Positions 2,334 to 39,018 of a stretch of 46,513 bases of DNA are shown here, piece after piece (the first letter of the stretch is position 1; each line of letters begins with the position of its first letter). This stretch comes from a virus (Duplodnaviria > Heunggongvirae > Uroviricota > Caudoviricetes). Below the pieces are notes generated by a model. The model saw nothing but the letters and a program-made list of their open reading frames with translations, was not told the DNA's origin and searched no databases. Position numbers and translations under genes: made by a program. Where the stretch lies: the IMG/VR virus record IMGVR_UViG_2718218361_000005; one strand, given 5' to 3'.

Positions 2334-2918
2334 TTACTCCCTGACAGGGTTCGTAGGCCACTCAATATCAGGTGCAGTTGATGTATCAACACGGTTCAGC
2401 AACACCCGATACTTTTTCCAGGCTTCCAGCAATGAGGTTTCTTCCTCCGTTGCGATTTCCAGATCTACAGCATCCTGAAGTGGCGCAATATGCTCACTGG
2501 CTACCTGCATCAGGCTGTTTTTTGTTTCTTCCGCCTCCCGGATCCGGAACAGTTTTTCTGCTTCTGCATCTTTCACCCAGGCTGTGCCGTTCCACTTCTG
2601 ATATTCCCCTCCCGGCGATAACCAGGTAACATTTTCCGGTAACGGACCGAGTTCAGAAATAAATAACGCGTCGCCGGAAGCCACGTCATAAACCGTTTTA
2701 CCCCGATGATCTTCAACGAGATGCCACGATGCCTCATCACTGTTGAAAACAGCCACGAAGCCTGCCGGAATATCTGGCGGTGCAATATCGGTACTGTTTG
2801 CTGGCAGACCTGTATGAGGCGGAATATATGCATCACCTTCACCAATAAATTCATTAGTTCCGGCCAGCAGATTATAAATTTTTATGGTCCGTGGTTGTTC
2901 ACTCATTCTGAATGCCAT
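2334..2918 (-). CDS. tfa: Tail fiber assembly protein Tfa (194 aa)
   Basis: Length and sequence match lambda Tfa; start overlaps the stf stop. Confidence 0.9.
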
Positions 2919-30640: not shown

Positions 30641-31003
30641 TCATTCATTCCCCATTTCGGTGATGGTCAGTTCCAGCCTCCCACCTTTGGTAACAGGCAT
30701 CTTCACAACGCGGTAATCAACGACCTGAGCATCATCCAGCCAGAAACCTGCTTTAGTGAGTGCGTCAAAAGCGGCTTTTTGCAGATTATCCAGGTCACGG
30801 CGACGGCGATCCGGCATGTGGCACTCAATGCGGATTTTCACAGGCATAGCCAGGCCGATATCCAGCATTGCGTTTTTAATGATTCGGGCGACGTTATCGC
30901 GGTATGCCTGCCCCTCTGCGCTGACGTGCGTGCGCCCGCGATTATGGCGGTAATAGCGATTATTGCTCGGAGGCCAGGGTAATGTGATGCTGTAGGTATT
31001 CAC
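30641..31003 (-). CDS. rusA: Holliday junction resolvase RusA (120 aa)
   Basis: [18 protein letters not shown]...; matches RusA. Confidence 0.9.
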
Positions 31004-31290
31004 GCCTTAATAACCCCCTCTTTCAGCCAGATAACCTGTGTTCTCGCCATACCTTCCAGCGCGCATTCTTTTGCATATGCAGCATCGACAAAATGTGTGC
31101 GGCGGTCGATTTCGTCGTGGCAGGCAGAACATGCAATGGTGGCAATCAGGTCTGGCGGTTTGATACCGGTACCGCACAATCCAGCCAGCCGGATATGTGC
31201 CAGTACTGACGTTTCAGGATTGCCATTACATACGCCAGGGATTCTTACCTGGCATTCCCGACCACGCGCTGCTTTTCTCAAATCAGCCAT
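31000..31290 (-). CDS. ybcO: YbcO-like Cys-rich nin-region protein (96 aa)
   Basis: ATG at 31288-31290 ([26 protein letters not shown]...); several conserved Cys/His. Confidence 0.8.
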
Positions 31291-31453
31291 GATTCCTCCT
31301 TGCTGCCAGTCGCAACCATTTTTTATCAACCAGGCTGGCGGTATATCCGAGCAGTGTTGGTATTTCGGATGGTTTCAGCTCAGGCTTACGCTTACGACGA
31401 TTTGGTACTCTGTAGATGTGTCCGTTCATGACACGAATAAGCGGTGTAGCCAT
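31283..31453 (-). CDS. ninE: NinE (56 aa)
   Basis: Hand translation [56 protein letters not shown]; ATG overlaps the ybcN stop. Confidence 0.8.
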   Translation of the reverse strand: MATPLIRVMNGHIYRVPNRRKRKPELKPSEIPTLLGYTASLVDKKWLRLAARRNHG

Positions 31454-31908
31454 TACGCCTCCTGCTTGTCGCGCAGCAGCTGGAACTCGCAGCTCTGCGG
31501 AATAGTCAGGTGGCAGCCAATATTCACCGCCCAGGCTTCAACCTTACACAGGAAGACATACATCTCTCCGGTATCGAGATCGGAGGTATGACGTAATGAC
31601 TGAATGGTGGTGATTTCACCGGTTACGACATCAACCAGTTCTTTGGTTTCATAACCGAGATAAGTGTGTTTGAGAGCATCTTTTACCCAAGCTGGAGTGG
31701 CGAACGTTTTACCCCTGCTGATGAGGTATTCACTGATTTCGCTGTACCACATGTGGCTGAGTGCATTCTGGGAAAGACTGCGTCTCTCGCGCCATGGTTT
31801 AAGCACCATGCGAAAGCATTTGCCGTCCTCCAGATAAGGCTGGATCTGCCGACCGATAGCGGTGAAGTTACCGCGATGCAGTTTGATGCCATCTTGTGGG
31901 AAGTTCAC
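31453..31908 (-). CDS. ybcN: NinB/YbcN-like recombination protein (151 aa), GTG start
   Basis: GTG at 31906-31908 preceded by GGAGGTGA; product .[20 protein letters not shown]... Confidence 0.8.
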
Positions 31909-31946
31909 GCTTCACCTCCGCAGAGATCAAACGCTGGATGCAAGAT

Positions 31947-32036
31947 ATCGCAGGTGCATTTCTGCATCTGTGAATGGAGAAGAGAGTTTGGATTGTATGT
32001 GCGCATAAACGTCCCCGTTTAGCGCAGAAGTCACCG
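31947..32036. repeat. Left copy of a ~90-bp direct repeat (about 89% identical to 35605..35694), immediately upstream of ybcN
   Basis: Hand alignment: 80 of 90 positions identical, no indels; contains a conserved hairpin gcgc.taaacg-tc.c-cgttta-gcgc. Confidence 0.75.
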
Positions 32037-32145
32037 GAGTTGTTCAGGCTCCGATAGACTGGCCCCCTGAATCTCCAGACAACCAATATCACTTAAATAA
32101 GTGATAGTCTTAATACTAGTTTTTAGACTAGTCATTGGAGAGCAG

Positions 32146-32511
32146 ATGATTGATGTCTTAGGACCGGAGAAACGCAGACGGCGTACTACACAGGAAAAGA
32201 TCGCTATTGTTCAGCAGAGTTTTGAACCGGGAATGACGGTCTCCCTTGTTGCCCGGCAACACGGTGTGGCAGCCAGCCAGTTATTTCTCTGGCGCAAGCA
32301 ATACCAGGAGGGAAGTCTTACTGCTGTGGTCGCAGGAGAGCAGGTCGTTCCTGCCTCTGAACTTGCTGCTGCCATGAAGCAGATTAAAGAACTCCAGCGC
32401 CTGCTCGGCAAAAAAACGATGGAAAATGAACTCCTTAAAGAAGCCGTTGAATACGGGCGTGCAAAAAAGTGGATAGCGCACGCGCCCTTATTGCCCGGGG
32501 ATGGGGAGTAA
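32146..32511 (+). CDS. insC: IS2 transposase OrfA, InsC (121 aa)
   Basis: ATG at 32146 ([24 protein letters not shown]...), HTH, IS3-family orfA. Confidence 0.9.
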
Positions 32512-33374
32512 GCTTAGTCAGCCGTTGTCTCCGGGTGTCGCGTGCGCAGTTGCACGTAATTCTCAGACGAACCGATGACTGGAAAGATGGTCGCCGCAGC
32601 CGTCACTCAGATGATACGGATGTGCTTCTCCGTATACACCATGTTATCGGAGAGCTGCCCACGTATGGTTATCGTCGGGTATGGGCGCTGCTTCGCAGAC
32701 AGGCCGAACTTGATGGTATGCCTGCGATCAATGCCAAACGTATTTACCGGATCATGCGCCAGAATGCGCTGTTGCTTGAGCGAAAACCCGCTGTACCGCC
32801 ATCGAAACGGGCACATACCGGCAGAGTGGCTGTGAAAGAAAGTAATCAGCGATGGTGCTCTGACGGGTTCGAGTTCCGCTGTGATAACGGAGAAAAACTG
32901 CGAGTCACGTTCGCGCTGGACTGCTGTGACCGTGAGGCACTGCACTGGGCGGTCACTACGGGCGGCTTCAACAGTGAAACAGTACAGGACGTCATGCTGG
33001 GAGCGGTGGAACGCCGTTTCGGCAACGAGCTTCCGGCGTCTCCAGTAGAGTGGCTGACGGATAATGGTTCATGCTACCGGGCTAATGAAACACGGCAGTT
33101 TGCCCGGATGTTGGGGCTTGAACCGAAGAACACGGCGGTGCGGAGTCCGGAGAGTAACGGCATAGCAGAGAGCTTCGTGAAAACGATAAAGCGTGACTAC
33201 ATCAGTGTCATGCCCAAACCAGACGGGTTAACGGCAGCAAAGAACCTTGCAGAGGCATTCGAGCATTATAACGAATGGCATCCGCATAGTGCACTGGGTT
33301 ATCGCTCGCCACGGGAATATCTACGGCAGCAAGCCAGTAATGGGTTAAGTGATAACAGGTGTCTGGAAATATAG
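32469..33374 (+). CDS. insD: IS2 transposase OrfB, InsD (DDE integrase core); expressed as InsCD fusion by -1 frameshift
   Basis: 301-aa ORF overlapping the insC 3' end in the -1 frame; DDE transposase motifs. Confidence 0.9.
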
Positions 33375-33440
33375 GGGCAAATCCATCCGATGACATGATT
33401 ATGGCAAAATGATTATGTAAAATCAAAAGCCAAAAAACAA

Positions 33441-34370
33441 TTATGGTTTATTTTCTAGCTCTGATTTTTTGAAAGCTTCTATCAGACGATTAGCATCTTC
33501 TGTACCACCAGGAAGCACGTTTGATTTTTTAAGAATATACGGTGGGAACTTTGTTGTTAAATATTCATGCTTAAACCATCTACGAAACTCTGACAATGCA
33601 GAATCAGGATAGGCATTAATGATCTGAGGATTGGAACTTGCCTGAAGAAAATCTTCAGGGTAATAATGCTCACAGTCTACTCTTTCTCCAAATTCTGTTG
33701 CTAACCCCTTTGCTTTCCAGTGACGCGCCCAGCAAGAACCAACACTGCCATCAGGTACGGTATGCTGATTAATCGCTAATCCAGCATTGATGAGATCTAC
33801 CATCATACCTGCAATTTCATTAAATATAATGAAATACCCATCAGGTATGGTTCCCTTATCTTTTAATAAAGATACTCTGTCATGGTAATGCCTCCACGGG
33901 TCCTCCGGTTGATATTTTAGCGCCTCGTATATAAATGTCTTGAGGCCTTTTTTAGCAAGCTCTCTGTAAGATCTAATTGCAGTCTCACTTTCTGCTTGTT
34001 TTGCTTCAAAGGCATAGTATTCAAGTATAGCCATGCATACAACATCTGGATAAGCATGGTACTCAACACCATTTCGAATTATTGGTATATAAAGTTTTTC
34101 ATCTGTAAAACCTTCATTAAGAAGATATGTACCAATAAAAGTCATTCTTCCTTTTTTGAAAATACCGTTCTCAACAGATTGAGCCCACTCATCGGTAATT
34201 TCCTTGATTCGCAAACGCTGAACACCACAAACATTTGCCAACCCATTCTGAGTAAGGTACGGAATTCCGTTATCGAGTACCCCCATTTCTATACCGTTAA
34301 TGACAGCCTCTTGCTTAACATCTAAGTCTAAAGGTATGGATCTGAGGGAGGTAGTTCTCTGTTGTGCCAT
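33441..34370 (-). CDS. Hypothetical 309-aa protein with N-terminal KilA-N/Bro-N-like segment; AT-rich accessory gene
   Basis: ATG at 34368-34370 preceded by AGGA (track ORF starts at an upstream TTG); N-terminal segment AVINGIEMGVLDNGIPYLTQNGLANVCGV resembles the KilA-N/Bro-N DNA-binding pattern; no function assigned. Confidence 0.6.
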   Translation of the reverse strand: MAQQRTTSLRSIPLDLDVKQEAVINGIEMGVLDNGIPYLTQNGLANVCGVQRLRIKEITDEWAQSVENGIFKKGRMTFIGTYLLNEGFTDEKLYIPIIRNGVEYHAYPDVVCMAILEYYAFEAKQAESETAIRSYRELAKKGLKTFIYEALKYQPEDPWRHYHDRVSLLKDKGTIPDGYFIIFNEIAGMMVDLINAGLAINQHTVPDGSVGSCWARHWKAKGLATEFGERVDCEHYYPEDFLQASSNPQIINAYPDSALSEFRRWFKHEYLTTKFPPYILKKSNVLPGGTEDANRLIEAFKKSELENKP

Positions 34371-34574
34371 TTTTGATCCTATCAATTTGAATTAATTGAA
34401 AAAATTAGGTGTTCCCTATGCATTAGAACACTCATCATACTAACCCCACTCGTTTGTGAAAAAAACTAATTTCACAATCAGTTAACTCTCAAAATAACTG
34501 ATATTCATACTCTCGCTATCCCATATATAGACATCCTTGTTTTAATACAACACTCATGGCTGGCGGCTATACTC

Positions 34575-35177
34575 CTAACAGATTTGACGCAAATACGGCA
34601 ATACTCGACCCCACTTATCATCCTGCCACGGCTGAATTTTTATATGTGCCGTTTTTCTGGCAAGGATTTCGCGCGCCTTATGTAGTATCTGGGGATATTC
34701 TTGCTCGATAGAAGTAAAGCGACCGGCTTCGCGGTGCTCCGCAACCTGAAGAAGTGGAGTAACGTTCTGGCAGGCGGTTAACATCGTATCACTTGCTCGC
34801 CATAACCAAGCAAGTGTGCAAAGTTCGTTATCAGTGAATTGTTTTGTGATCGGGGATTGTTGAACTTCTCGATCGAGAATATCCAGAACCCAGCGGCGGA
34901 ACTCTTTGGCTACAGGAGTTCGTGCAAACATGGCGATCAAATGGGCTCCGCGAAGGCTAAATACTCGAGACTCCTGCATTCCACGAGGGGTGGTCACTTT
35001 GACCACCCTTGTCATCATATCTGTAAATTCATCTGAGTGACGAGAGTAAATGCGCTGAACTGCTTTATCGTCCGCATATTCCAGAGCTAAACCAACTTCA
35101 GTGGCAGTAAGCCAAATTCTGTTATTGTGGCAAATTGGGGTAAACGTCGTTTTGTGGAATGCTAATTGAGTAGTCAT
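34575..35177 (-). CDS. Bro-N domain protein, antirepressor-like (200 aa)
   Basis: ATG preceded by GAGGTGA; N-terminus FTPICHNNRIWLTATEVGLALEY...RVFSLRGAHLIAMFARTPVAKEFRRWVLDIL fits the Bro-N pattern. Confidence 0.6.
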   Translation of the reverse strand: MTTQLAFHKTTFTPICHNNRIWLTATEVGLALEYADDKAVQRIYSRHSDEFTDMMTRVVKVTTPRGMQESRVFSLRGAHLIAMFARTPVAKEFRRWVLDILDREVQQSPITKQFTDNELCTLAWLWRASDTMLTACQNVTPLLQVAEHREAGRFTSIEQEYPQILHKAREILARKTAHIKIQPWQDDKWGRVLPYLRQIC

Positions 35178-35331
35178 AGTATCACCTCATCAGGTTAACC
35201 ATCACCACCAACGACGCCAATCGACTGGTGGTGAACTGTGCAAGGTTGGCGTAACCGGCTACTCAAACCCGGCGCTCCCGAAGAAGCCCTCACACAGCCC
35301 ACCATAATTTGGGCGTAGCCGTGCTTAGCGC

Positions 35332-35354
35332 ATAAAAAAACCGCTTAACGCGGT
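35332..35354 (-). terminator. Intrinsic terminator downstream of the small hydrophobic ORF
   Basis: Minus-strand hairpin accgc-gttaa-gcggt followed by a T7 run. Confidence 0.6.
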
Positions 35355-35440
35355 ATGCGTTGAGTAGTATTCCGGGACGCCAATCCCGTGTGCCGATTTT
35401 GCGGCAACGCACAGAATATAGCGCCGGATAAATAATGTCG

Positions 35441-35536
35441 TCAACCCTTGCAAATGGGTGGTGCGATGATCACTACTACCACCATAATCGCTCCAACTGT
35501 TGCAACTACTTTAGGCCAAGACATCACGATTTCCAT
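35441..35536 (-). CDS. Candidate small hydrophobic peptide (31 aa)
   Basis: Hand translation MEIVMSWPKVVATVGAIMVVVVIIAPPICKG; AAGGTGA 2-3 nt upstream of the ATG; lies between the right repeat copy and a terminator; no homolog recalled. Confidence 0.3.
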   Translation of the reverse strand: MEIVMSWPKVVATVGAIMVVVVIIAPPICKG

Positions 35537-35604
35537 ATCACCTTTAGCCGCCAGACAAACAGAGACTCCCTGTTCTTGGCTGCCAAAAACACCGAATGCA
35601 AAAA

Positions 35605-35694
35605 ATCGCAGGTGTATTTCTGCATCTGTGGAGGGAGAATAGGATTTAGATTGTATGTGCGTATAAACGTCACCGTTTAGCGCAGAAGTTACCG
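35605..35694. repeat. Right copy of the ~90-bp direct repeat (see 31947..32036)
   Basis: Hand alignment with 31947..32036. Confidence 0.75.
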
Positions 35695-35772
35695 CCAAGT
35701 GTCAAGTCTGCGGTGACTTAATTAAACAGCATACTAAGTTATATAATACTAATATCATAAATGTTAATTATT

Positions 35773-36177
35773 TTAACCATTCATAATCGTGACCATTATT
35801 AAGTCACCAAATGCATTTATTATCGATGATATGATTATAATGATAACACCCCATAGAATATTCCTTGATACTGCACGACCTTTTTCAGAGGTTGAGGTGA
35901 CGCTCCCATCTTGTTGTACCGAACCAAAACTAAATGCTTCTCGCCTTGATAGGTAGATACCTTCTGCAAAAAGCGGAGAAAGAGTAAGCAATGTGCCAAT
36001 CATTATGCCTAAACATCCGAATCGGGGAAGAAGTGACCAATCATTTTCTATATATGCATATATGCAACCACATATCATTAGCACCAACCAGAAGGCAACC
36101 ATTAGCTTCTTGTTTGCAAGCCATTTTAAATAAGGATCAAGCAGATGTTTATCATCTTTGCTTATTTTCGTTGTCAT
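35773..36177 (-). CDS. Hypothetical integral membrane protein (134 aa, ~3 TM helices), AT-rich accessory gene
   Basis: ATG at 36175-36177 preceded by AGAGG; hydrophobic segments LMVAFWLVLMICGCIYAYI, FGCLGIMIGTLLTLSPLF, ILWGVIIIIISSIINAF. Confidence 0.6.
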   Translation of the reverse strand: MTTKISKDDKHLLDPYLKWLANKKLMVAFWLVLMICGCIYAYIENDWSLLPRFGCLGIMIGTLLTLSPLFAEGIYLSRREAFSFGSVQQDGSVTSTSEKGRAVSRNILWGVIIIIISSIINAFGDLIMVTIMNG

Positions 36178-36533
36178 ATAGCCTCTATTATTCAAAGTGT
36201 ATTATATCTTAACAATAAATAACTCAGATTTAAGTGAATGCTCGAGTTTAGCAATTCTTCCCCTCCTTCTATATTTTTGCTACCTACGGTATCCAATAGC
36301 TTACCTGATCTTACCCAGCCTCTTGCAAAATTGGTGACGAATCATAACCGGTTCGGATTACATCTAGTACTCTATATCAGTTAATTTATAAATAACTTCG
36401 CGTTGCTCTATGCAAATTAATACAATCAGTTCTTGCGTAAGTGCCTCCACCTGATCCAGTTATCGTCCTACCGCAATTGGGATTTTATGTGCACTGTATC
36501 CCAGTAAAAATTATGAATACATTATAGACAACA

Positions 36534-36562
36534 GAAATAAAAAACCCAGAGCCAACTGGGTT
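36534..36562 (-). terminator. Intrinsic terminator downstream of the secreted-protein gene
   Basis: Hairpin aaccca-gagccaac-tgggtt followed on the minus strand by ttttatttctg. Confidence 0.6.
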
Positions 36563-36579
36563 CATATGAGATTTTTTTG

Positions 36580-37074
36580 TTATTTCCAATTGCAAGACTG
36601 TGAAATTTTTTCCACAACCTTATCAATCTCAGACAAGTCAAACTCAACTACTTGCATAGTTGATCCATAAGGTTCAAACCCAAAAATAGCTTTTTTATGC
36701 TTAGCCAAGGTCTTTATAAATTGTATTGGTTGTGGAGCAAATGCAGAATCACCGCCTTCCCCACCTCCCCAAACACTCTTGATCGGCTTTCCGCCATCTA
36801 ACCGCACTGTAATTCTTGGGTTGTCCGACCCCATATAATCATTGAATGATAAATAGGCATCTGTTTTGTTATCACTACAACGCAACACCAGTGAAGTTGC
36901 ACGATCAGTACCTGCTTTGTTATATGAATCTGGTGATAAGTTAAGAGCCACAAAGTCAGTCTGGTCAGTCATTTTATTTATCTCAGACTTTGTTATCCAC
37001 GGCCCTAACTTCTCTACACCAGCATTTGCTGTAAACGAGGCACTTATGACAAAGGCTAAAATAAATTTTCTCAT
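36580..37074 (-). CDS. Hypothetical secreted/periplasmic protein (164 aa) with cleavable signal peptide, AT-rich accessory gene
   Basis: Strong SD AAGGAG; signal peptide MRKFILAFVISASFTANA; two Cys; no homolog recalled. Confidence 0.6.
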   Translation of the reverse strand: MRKFILAFVISASFTANAGVEKLGPWITKSEINKMTDQTDFVALNLSPDSYNKAGTDRATSLVLRCSDNKTDAYLSFNDYMGSDNPRITVRLDGGKPIKSVWGGGEGGDSAFAPQPIQFIKTLAKHKKAIFGFEPYGSTMQVVEFDLSEIDKVVEKISQSCNWK

Positions 37075-37220
37075 AACCCTATCTCCTTGGATTCAAAGAA
37101 CTAAATATTATCAAGTCTCTTGCCACTAGAAAACCCACTTTACTACCAAACTCTGACGGCATTCCTGAAAATTCGGTTCATACTCACTTGCCCCGCCCTA
37201 TCATCCTGAGTAGCTAACCG

Positions 37221-37394
37221 TTAAACAAACGTTCGCCAGACCTTACCATCAATGACTAAGATTCCTGCCCGCGCCATTTTAGCCGCAGCCTGATTTATGC
37301 TGGTTACTGTCACACCTGTTACCGCAGCAACGTCCTGCGCACAGAAGTTCTTATGAGTCCCCAGGTAATGAATAATTGCCTCTTTGCCCGTCAT
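37221..37394 (-). CDS. ren: Ren-like protein, C-terminally shortened (57 aa versus ~96 aa in lambda)
   Basis: Hand translation MTGKEAIIHYLGTHKNFCAQDVAAVTGVTVTSINQAAAKMARAGILVIDGKVWRTFV; start overlaps the P stop as in lambda; AT-rich sequence follows the stop. Confidence 0.7.
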   Translation of the reverse strand: MTGKEAIIHYLGTHKNFCAQDVAAVTGVTVTSINQAAAKMARAGILVIDGKVWRTFV

Positions 37395-38092
37395 ACACTT
37401 GCTCCTTTCAGCCCAAACTTAGCTTTGATTTCTGCGATCTTCGCCAGAGCCTGTGCACGATTTAGAGGTCTACCGCCCATGACAGGAAGTTGTTTTACTG
37501 GTTCAGGTATCGCCTCACCACGGTTAATTCGCGCGGTCATACAGGACAGTTCATCGGCAGCCTTGCGCCGTAATTCCGCGTCAGTCAACGCATTGGCCCG
37601 CATGTTCTGATACAGGTTGGTAACCAGCCAGTAGTGCGCGTTTGATTTCCACGGATAAGACTCTGCATCCGGATACAGACCACGCTTCCGGCAATACTCG
37701 TAAACCATATCAACCAGCTCGCTGACGTTTGGCAGCCCGGCGGTAACGGATGCTTCTTCCCGGCACCATGCAACAAACTGCCCGGGTGATGGCAGAAATG
37801 GTCTATTCTGCCGACGGGCAACACGCATTCCGGCGCTCACCTGTTCCATCGTGGTGATCCCGTTTTCCCGGAAAGCCAGAACCCACTGGCGGCGGATTTC
37901 GTTCAGTTCGTTCTGGTCACGATTAGCCAGGCTCGCCGGGAAAGTTGCCAGTAACTGGCTGAATACACCGTTGATGATCTGCGCTACCTGCTGTACCTGC
38001 GGCTTTTCGTCGTACTGTTCCGGCATGTTGTTAGCGATCCGACGCATCTGCTCACGGTCAAAGTTAATCATCTGTGCGGCGATGTTTTTCAT
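37391..38092 (-). CDS. P: Replication protein P (DnaB helicase loader), 233 aa
   Basis: Matches lambda P. Confidence 0.95.
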   Translation of the reverse strand: MKNIAAQMINFDREQMRRIANNMPEQYDEKPQVQQVAQIINGVFSQLLATFPASLANRDQNELNEIRRQWVLAFRENGITTMEQVSAGMRVARRQNRPFLPSPGQFVAWCREEASVTAGLPNVSELVDMVYEYCRKRGLYPDAESYPWKSNAHYWLVTNLYQNMRANALTDAELRRKAADELSCMTARINRGEAIPEPVKQLPVMGGRPLNRAQALAKIAEIKAKFGLKGASV

Positions 38093-39018
38093 AGATCCAC
38101 CCCGTAAATCCAGTCTGTGTTTGTCAGGTCGAGTTTTGGTTTGCTAGCTGTCACGCCTGCCTGTTGCTTGTTACGGTTGATTTCGAGTTGGGTCCACTTG
38201 TCGCGGAGTTTGGCCGGACTTAGCACGTTACCGGACCAGAAGTTGTCCTGGCATGCCCAGCGGAACAGCACGCACATGTCGCGGTGGTTACGTCCGTCAC
38301 GTTCACGCATCAGGCGGATATCGTTAGCCCACCCTGCAAAATTCGGTTTTCTGGCTGATGGCGCGATGGTCTTCACCATGTCAAACATCCACTCTGCGGC
38401 GGTCAGGTCTTCTGCTGTCCCCCACCTGCTGCCGCTCTGAATTGCAGCATCTGGTTTCTCCACAGGAAGGTCGTTTTCTGGCTGGTCAGAGGATTCGCCA
38501 GAATTCTCGGACGAAAAAGGTTTTATATTGTCTTTTGTTAGTTTGTCTTTTGTGTTTACCTGATTCGGGTAAACGTCTTTACCTGATTTGGGTAAACTTT
38601 TTTTACCTGATTCAGGTAAATTTACCTCTTTCAGGTAAACTTTATTTTTCTTACCTGATTCGGGTAATGTTGACCATTCACTGACCACATTATTAATGCC
38701 GGTATTCCGCCCGCTCTGAATAAGAATCCCACGCTTTACCAGAACACTTTTTGCAGCAGAACACTTGTGCGGCAATATCCCGGTCAATTCGGACAGTTGC
38801 TCGTTGCTCACCCAATCCAGTTTTTTATTAAAGCCATATGTTTTGCGCATGACAGCTAGGAAGACCAGAAGCTGGTGCTGTGTTAATCCGGCCAGCATCA
38901 CAGCTTCCAGCAACTCATTTGCAATGCGCGTATAACCATCATCGAGATCTGCCACGCGCGGCTCCTTTTGTGCCGCATCCGGCACTGGAAAATTGAATAT
39001 CTCAGCAGTGTTTGCCAT
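38089..39018 (-). CDS. O: Replication initiator O (309 aa), N-terminal iteron-binding domain differs from lambda, C-terminal P-interacting domain lambda-like
   Basis: ATG at 39016-39018 preceded by GGGAGG; N-terminus MANTAEIFNFP... resembles lambda O; ori iterons inside the gene; overlaps the P start. Confidence 0.85.
   Translation of the reverse strand: MANTAEIFNFPVPDAAQKEPRVADLDDGYTRIANELLEAVMLAGLTQHQLLVFLAVMRKTYGFNKKLDWVSNEQLSELTGILPHKCSAAKSVLVKRGILIQSGRNTGINNVVSEWSTLPESGKKNKVYLKEVNLPESGKKSLPKSGKDVYPNQVNTKDKLTKDNIKPFSSENSGESSDQPENDLPVEKPDAAIQSGSRWGTAEDLTAAEWMFDMVKTIAPSARKPNFAGWANDIRLMRERDGRNHRDMCVLFRWACQDNFWSGNVLSPAKLRDKWTQLEINRNKQQAGVTASKPKLDLTNTDWIYGVDL
38556..38670. repeat. Replication origin iterons (five ~19-20-bp repeats, TTTACCTGATTCGGGTAAAC-type) with adjacent A/T-rich region, inside O
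   Basis: Repeats at 38556-38575, 38579-38598, 38602-38620, 38621-38640, 38651-38670; A/T-rich 38520-38555. Confidence 0.8.

Follow-up and report, generated by a model that had tools for sequence, protein, structure and literature searches.

A BstA-family abortive-infection gene away from the repressor, beside an antirepressor gene with its own RNA leader, in a lambda-like prophage of Escherichia coli

The BstA proteins of Salmonella phage BTP1, Escherichia coli NCTC10963 and Klebsiella Kp52.145 have been tested and act in phage defence (Owen et al. 2021, PMC8585504). The same paper describes a KilA-N-like domain at the N-terminus of BstA, with a domain boundary at about residue 155, and calls the position of bstA after the repressor gene 'strikingly conserved', although in the published set this position is frequent and not obligatory. 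It also describes aba, a DNA element of 63 bp in BTP1 (-29 to +34) that depends on the CCCGCC repeats at its ends: aba was lost when one base was changed in either of them. The behaviour of aba is cognate. In E. coli, bstA has been reported in lambda-like prophages at tRNA-Arg hotspot #32 (Hochhauser et al. 2023, PMC10121019). Here we describe a bstA gene and its neighbour, an antirepressor gene (ant), in a stretch of 46,513 nucleotides that we call the window (IMG/VR virus record IMGVR_UViG_2718218361_000005). The gene family and the prophage type have both been described already, and the find itself is not new. What can be added concerns the place of the gene in the prophage, its relationship to ant and the self-immunity element that BstA loci may share.

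The window is 100% identical to sequence of E. coli strains S21 and H14. It holds a near-complete lambda-like prophage, running from intD through the tail-fibre genes and integrated beside tRNA-Arg (argU) and fimZ, which is the DLP12 site; BstA is thus encoded by a prophage here. The prophages of Hochhauser et al. are likewise lambda-like, lie beside tRNA-Arg (argU, the DLP12 site) and carry bstA; the passage on them gives presence and integration site, and not the position within the prophage, an antirepressor neighbour or aba. In the literature that we searched we found no paper linking BstA with DLP12.

Our subject lies between ren, a pseudogene in RefSeq (37221..37394), as is kil, and ybcN (31453..31908). 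The original prediction, made from the letters of the sequence, had placed two genes of 309 and 200 amino acids (aa) there. Both open reading frames (ORFs) exist as described, on the minus strand at 33441..34370 (bstA, WP_000068668.1) and 34575..35177 (ant), and each has a Shine-Dalgarno-like site (AGGA 7 nt 5' of the bstA ATG, GGTGA 5 nt 5' of the ant ATG). The longer gene is also AT-rich as had been noted: the content of guanine plus cytosine is 0.36-0.41 over 33300-34650, which takes in this gene and the spacer upstream of it, while the phage backbone on either side has about 0.50-0.55. The interval holds further features that the prediction did not list, namely an IS2-type element, two more ORFs and genes for isrK-type and C4-type RNAs.

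Judged by profile matches, the 309-aa protein is a full-length member of the known BstA abortive-infection family. Its residues 5-308 align with positions 2-303 of the 304 in PHROG 6287, 'BstA abortive infection system, replication inhibitor' (expectation value, E, 1.8e-136), and its residues 10-304 match the PADLOC BstA model (E 3.6e-121). The earlier guess that this gene encodes a BstA-type abortive-infection protein and not an antirepressor was therefore right. A large protein collection contains 1250 homologs, and the BstA_C domain (PF26567) is precomputed on the cluster of identical proteins and on all full-length homologs among those listed. Identity is 40% to BstA-BTP1 (306 residues), 38% to the BstA-Ec allele type and 50% to the homolog of Pseudomonas phage PseuP_222. 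With BstA-BTP1, BstA-Ec (E. coli NCTC10963) and BstA-Kp the window protein shares full-length membership of the family, a prophage location and the two-domain layout. It is also similar in size, with 309 aa against 307 and 301 aa for BstA-BTP1 and the tested homologs; an alternative start, a TTG at 34385 in place of the ATG, would give 314 aa. An identical protein is encoded in E. coli NCTC8623 (LR134234:4556999-4557928), a locus that is among the 72 homologs in Table S1 of the family-defining paper (PMC8585504). The allele is kept at 99% identity or more in 110 of 5426 complete E. coli genomes (roughly 2%), and the ORF in the window is intact. In RefSeq the protein is mostly named 'hypothetical protein', while the newest records call it 'BstA C-terminal domain-containing protein'.

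An AlphaFold model based on 53 homologs has a mean predicted local distance difference test score (pLDDT) of 85; residues 1-13 are disordered, and pLDDT dips between about 160 and about 200, roughly at the published domain boundary. Both N-termini had been predicted to be of KilA-N/Bro-N type. This could be verified for the 200-aa protein alone, which matches Pfam Bro-N (PF02498; E 4.4e-10, 40.5 bits against a cutoff of 25.6). For the 309-aa protein, Pfam KilA-N gave no match at E<=1, and structure and profile comparisons point only weakly in this direction, so that the published KilA-N-like domain was not recovered at a significant level. When hhalign was run against the Bro-N profile, the core strand-helix motif alone was aligned, at 2.5% probability, and a Foldseek search of the BstA model against BFVD gave a single match below 1e-3, with a low template-modelling score. 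A scan with a Pfam-A release that lacks the PF26567 model found no domain (crAss_CARG1 at E 0.16 was the only hit, and is spurious), and NCBIfam gave no match. No convincing solved relative was found for the C-terminal domain, and a sequence-profile search of PDB returned only 4ham_A, at E 0.08.

Ant and BstA show no significant similarity to each other by BLASTP, which aligned EFRRW only (E 0.33), or by hhalign. The shared pentapeptide stands at residues 92-96 of Ant and 261-265 of BstA, in a helix after beta strands, and F262, R263 and W265 of BstA are nearly invariant. A Bro-N-like helix within BstA_C, at which EFRRW hints, was considered and dropped in view of the BLASTP value and because hhalign did not recover the EFRRW alignment.

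If both genes encoded antirepressor or other regulatory proteins that serve prophage induction only, there would be no defence role at this locus. The 200-aa protein is a clear antirepressor, and the weak-score Foldseek matches of the BstA model in BFVD include antirepressor, Bro and KilA proteins. We nevertheless find this reading scarcely credible. The 309-aa protein matches BstA profiles from end to end (E about 1e-120 to 1e-136) and none of the antirepressor families; moreover, three BstA members with about 40% mutual identity all provided defence in experiments (PMC8585504). The preferred reading is that the longer gene belongs to a defence family and the shorter one does not.

The 200-aa protein is, as its domains indicate, an ordinary and separately regulated phage antirepressor, whose predicted action is the inactivation of a repressor. 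Besides Bro-N it has a P22AR_C domain (PF10548; E 8.7e-17, 61.4 bits, cutoff 22.4), it matches PHROG antirepressor families, and it is 96-97% identical to proteins of the isolated E. coli phages IdasGreatGrand and PhiR26_1. Immediately upstream of its gene, on the same strand, lies a series of elements (35224-35444) that appear to form a leader like that of immI. It begins with a promoter-like site, TTGACG-18-TATATT (35415..35444), which agrees with the consensus at 10/12 positions and is the best in the region. There follow an isrK-type Hfq-binding small RNA (35334..35406; Rfam RF01394, 60.7 bits, gathering score 50) with a terminator-like site, whose hairpin is at 35340..35354, and a C4-type antisense RNA that matches the full model (35224..35309; Rfam RF01695, 72.7 bits, gathering score 45). 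A match to the c4-a1b1 target at 35369..35421 overlaps isrK, its 40.6 bits being below the gathering score of 46.7. Finally, a 36-codon upstream ORF (35195..35305) overlaps the C4 RNA and ends 17 nt before the ant ATG. None of these four, isrK, C4, the c4-a1b1 match and the short ORF, is annotated in the RefSeq record.

The layout of the immI operon of phages P1 and P7 is c4-icd-ant. That of the corresponding Gifsy-1 locus is isrK-orf45-anrP (Hershko-Shalev et al. 2016, PMC4825925). The order in the window is the same: promoter, isrK-type small RNA with terminator, C4-type RNA over a short ORF, antirepressor. The 36-codon ORF would then be the positional counterpart of orf45 in Gifsy-1 and of icd in P1. 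By analogy, ant would be kept silent by an immI-type leader in which the isrK small RNA, the C4 antisense RNA and a translationally coupled upstream ORF act. What sets the module in the window apart from those of Gifsy-1 and P1 is its place in the nin region of a lambda-like phage; the likeness is one of layout, from which its regulatory behaviour can only be presumed.

Very probably, then, the interval consists of two independent accessory modules, a self-contained bstA moron and a conventional antirepressor with an RNA leader. The original prediction took the two genes together, as like genes that stand in tandem and make up one cassette. This is not supported, as ant has its own isrK/C4 leader, occurs without bstA and is truncated in other carriers. 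Phage IdasGreatGrand has ant (97% identity) with the same leader and no bstA. Full-length ant stands beside bstA in only 2 of the 5426 E. coli genomes. For almost every other E. coli carrier, the DNA shared with the window begins only at 34879, midway through ant, where Bro-N and P22AR_C meet. Annotation was read for two of these, NCTC8623 and 2016C-3878; next to ybcK each retains 105 aa from the C-terminal part of Ant, a remnant that is marked as a pseudogene in one of the two.

It could be argued that ant and bstA are still one two-gene defence or regulatory system, in which the antirepressor would serve as a sensor or regulator for BstA. The genes are adjacent and co-oriented with a gap of 204 bp, and the 3' half of ant accompanies bstA in about 100 E. 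coli genomes. However, the rarity of the full-length pair and the remnants in both other carriers examined speak against such a system, and these natural truncations imply that ant is dispensable for bstA resistance. In addition, BstA relatives with 69-74% identity are encoded directly after cI without an antirepressor, the same ant and leader occur in a phage without bstA, and in the published systems one bstA gene is enough for defence (PMC8585504). We consider a two-gene system highly improbable. Genomic context led us to reject the more specific idea that ant and bstA are a conserved pair: the relatives after cI lack an antirepressor, and a phage has ant without bstA.

The limits of the bstA module can be read from a comparison by blastn with IdasGreatGrand, the backbone of which is 95-98% identical to the window. 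Homology extends over 38500..34587, with 98% identity of the backbone down to that point, and resumes at 33427..33386 and 32055..31000. The break at 34587 is twelve bases before the ant stop codon, and the phage carries about 840 bp of unrelated DNA where the window has bstA, until homology rejoins at 33427. The break and the rejoining define a cassette of 1.16 kb on the minus strand (33428..34586), which comprises the promoter region, the ORF and a 3' hairpin. The promoter-like site, TTTTCA-17-TATGAT (34434..34462), is predicted only; it was the sole candidate in a scan for sigma-70 consensus and agrees with it at 9/12 positions. The hairpin is AU-rich, spans the bstA stop codon and is followed by a run of U (33419..33468; RNA fold -17.7 kcal/mol, z -2.3). 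It is a possible intrinsic terminator, and a stricter terminator scan did not recover it. We would therefore describe this bstA as a moron with its own promoter-like site, ORF and hairpin, the product of which combines a putative KilA-N-like DNA-binding domain with BstA_C. Lambda RexAB and the lambdoid morons offer a parallel, in that an abortive-infection function expressed by the prophage would likewise sit on a self-contained insert rich in AT. They differ from the window bstA in that the proteins are unrelated and the position in the genome is another.

The position of the cassette is unusual. In the window, some 4.3 kb separate bstA from cI: it is not directly downstream of the repressor gene but in the nin region, where it is flanked by ant and ybcN and stands downstream of the former. 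Relatives in Lonsdalea (74% identity), Rosenbergiella (70%) and Morganella (69%) are directly after a cI-type repressor gene, and so are the bstA genes of BTP1, of the Ec type and of PseuP_222. Hence, the window bstA has been relocated to the nin region, and, being away from cI, it does not share the repressor promoter and needs a promoter of its own. Two relatives with 75-76% identity, one on the Logan contig SRR18076608 and one in Rahnella, are also outside the immunity region; one of them is near baseplate and acyltransferase genes, and around the other no phage genes occur within 5 kb. E. coli is thus not alone in having a relocated bstA cassette.

The published aba element invites a comparison across the family. 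We compared the regions from -100 to +110 around the bstA starts of 76 loci from diverse Proteobacteria, 67 of them left when 79 loci of species-representative genomes were filtered for a near-complete match, and nine fetched separately. The functional CCCGCC repeats of BTP1 are 56 bp apart. Among the 76 loci, exact repeats of at least 6 nt occur at a spacing of 57 bp in 26 loci and of 56 bp in 8, while most other spacings are represented by 1-4 loci and one reached 6. The best 12-nt self-match falls at a spacing of 56-58 in 39 of the 75 loci that are distinct in DNA (binomial P about 1e-33 under a uniform null). Relatedness is ignored by this null: in control windows inside the gene there are peaks shared by up to about 11 loci. 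The matching boxes are up to 16 nt long and the spacer between them is unrelated. They are also specific to the locus: the two boxes of a locus agree at 10.9/12 positions, and the best match to be had anywhere in a different locus reaches 8.0/12, which fits with the published cognate behaviour of aba (PMC8585504). The Ec-type locus, immune in experiments, has an 11/14 pair at 57 bp, and the homolog of a Klebsiella phage has a 10/14 pair. The downstream box is part of the coding sequence for the N-terminal tail of BstA, which is disordered and not conserved. In an alignment of enteric relatives both boxes are conserved, as AGGGAACACCCT and AGAGATCACCCT, and the start codon shifts between them.

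These paired boxes seem to generalise the published aba repeats across BstA loci. One may go further and suggest that aba in general is bipartite, made of two locus-specific boxes of 10-16 bp (loose theme GRTCRCCACCC) that are 57 bp apart, with the downstream copy in codons of the N-terminal tail and with a degenerate version in the window that shares GRGAAC only. We put this forward tentatively, at somewhat less than an even chance of being correct. In the literature that we searched we found no paper analysing aba beyond BTP1.

In the window itself the best aba candidate is the pair 34419..34404 and 34362..34347, on the minus strand. Box 1, ATAGGGAACACCTAAT, falls within the predicted 5' leader, 49 nt 5' of the ATG, and aligns with AGGGAACACCCT, the conserved non-coding box of the nearest relatives. 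Box 2, ACAGAGAACTACCTCC, covers bstA codons 3-8, lies 57 bp downstream of box 1 and aligns with AGAGATCACCCT, the second box of the relatives. The pair is degenerate compared to the exact CCCGCCA pair at 56 bp in BTP1. Around the bstA start of the window, exact direct repeats at spacings of 54-59 do not exceed 4 nt. A 10-nt repeat pair at a spacing of 77 (34254/34331) was set aside, being at chance level.

What might the locus do? By analogy with the tested proteins, BstA would be made in the lysogen. Upon infection by an unrelated phage it would gather at the replicating phage DNA and block replication, and the infected cell would die without releasing progeny, that is, by abortive infection. 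A short DNA element overlapping the bstA start, aba, would protect the prophage's own lytic replication. Several points weigh against this picture. The tested E. coli protein, BstA-Ec, is a different allele from that of the window, and the BTP1 protein is hardly closer. Given the non-canonical position of the gene, expression in the lysogen hangs on the predicted 9/12 promoter. The two boxes match each other at 8/12 positions ungapped, which is not significant alone. When the window was scanned by itself for self-matches, with or without gaps, 57 bp did not stand out, and other spacings scored equally. Because the boxes agree at 8/12 only, while one base change kills the BTP1 aba, the aba of the window may be weak, inactive or elsewhere.

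This raises the question whether bstA here is a domesticated defence gene with decayed self-immunity, one that aborts foreign phages, also blocks lytic replication of its own prophage and so helps to ground it. In the comparison with the enteric relatives, the two boxes of the window resemble each other least (8/12, where the others have 10-12/12). The elements examined that carry the gene are of DLP12 type, with emrE and ybcK; in the window prophage ren and kil are pseudogenised, and the early-right operon has an IS2 inserted between bstA and Q. However, the structural, lysis and replication genes of the window prophage look intact, and a relative with 86% identity has a similar half-conserved pair sharing GAGAAC, so that this lineage may simply have a shorter recognised core. 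On balance we think decay of self-immunity unlikely, and keep to the reading of bstA as a self-contained defence moron whose own prophage may be spared through aba.

The insertion just mentioned is an IS2-type insertion sequence of the IS3 family, 1331 bp long and on the plus strand (32055..33385), as judged by its junctions against the uninterrupted locus; RefSeq has it as 'IS3 family transposase, programmed frameshift'. It lies 50 bp 3' of the bstA stop codon and is bounded by a 5-bp target duplication, TCCGA, at 32050-32054 and 33386-33390. In the early-right operon it separates bstA from ybcN, ninE, rusA and quuD. It could have a polar effect on expression of Q, which would impair induction of an otherwise near-complete prophage.

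The entire isrK-C4-ant-bstA(-IS2) block is flanked by two direct repeat copies of 108 nt with 86% identity (35587..35694 and 31929..32036), each covering a small ORF; in the second copy this is a 33-aa ORF just upstream of ybcN. As both copies are also present in IdasGreatGrand, the pair may be a recombination boundary at which morons of the nin region are swapped. Two further morons of this region, both on the minus strand and both found in IdasGreatGrand too, encode a secreted VasI/TagO-like protein of 164 aa (36580-37074; Pfam VasI at E 6.8e-06, which falls just short of the cutoff) and a membrane protein of 134/140 aa without a family (35773-36195). A PADLOC search gave no match for the 164-aa ORF, the 134-aa ORF or the ORF that IdasGreatGrand has in place of bstA. 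The prophage also contains, close to its tail-fibre end, a full-length match to the Rfam IS009 small RNA (2377-2575, minus strand; 229.5 bits).

As for annotation, the gene, whose product most RefSeq records call hypothetical, is a known abortive-infection gene, and about 2% of complete E. coli genomes have it. It bears on predictions of phage host range and of the outcome of phage therapy in such strains. Beyond this, some modest interest attaches to the place of bstA outside its canonical position, to the IS2 that separates it from the late-gene regulator, and to the 57-bp pattern across the family, of which the window has a degenerate copy. If the window allele is functional, it works away from the repressor promoter, and expression of BstA would be uncoupled from transcription of cI. 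If the 57-bp model is true, the degenerate boxes reflect either a shorter recognition core or decayed self-immunity, and the latter would make the prophage a target of its own defence. For the family as a whole, two locus-specific boxes 57 bp apart would provide a testable model of aba and of its cognate specificity, a question left by the work that defined BstA (PMC8585504).

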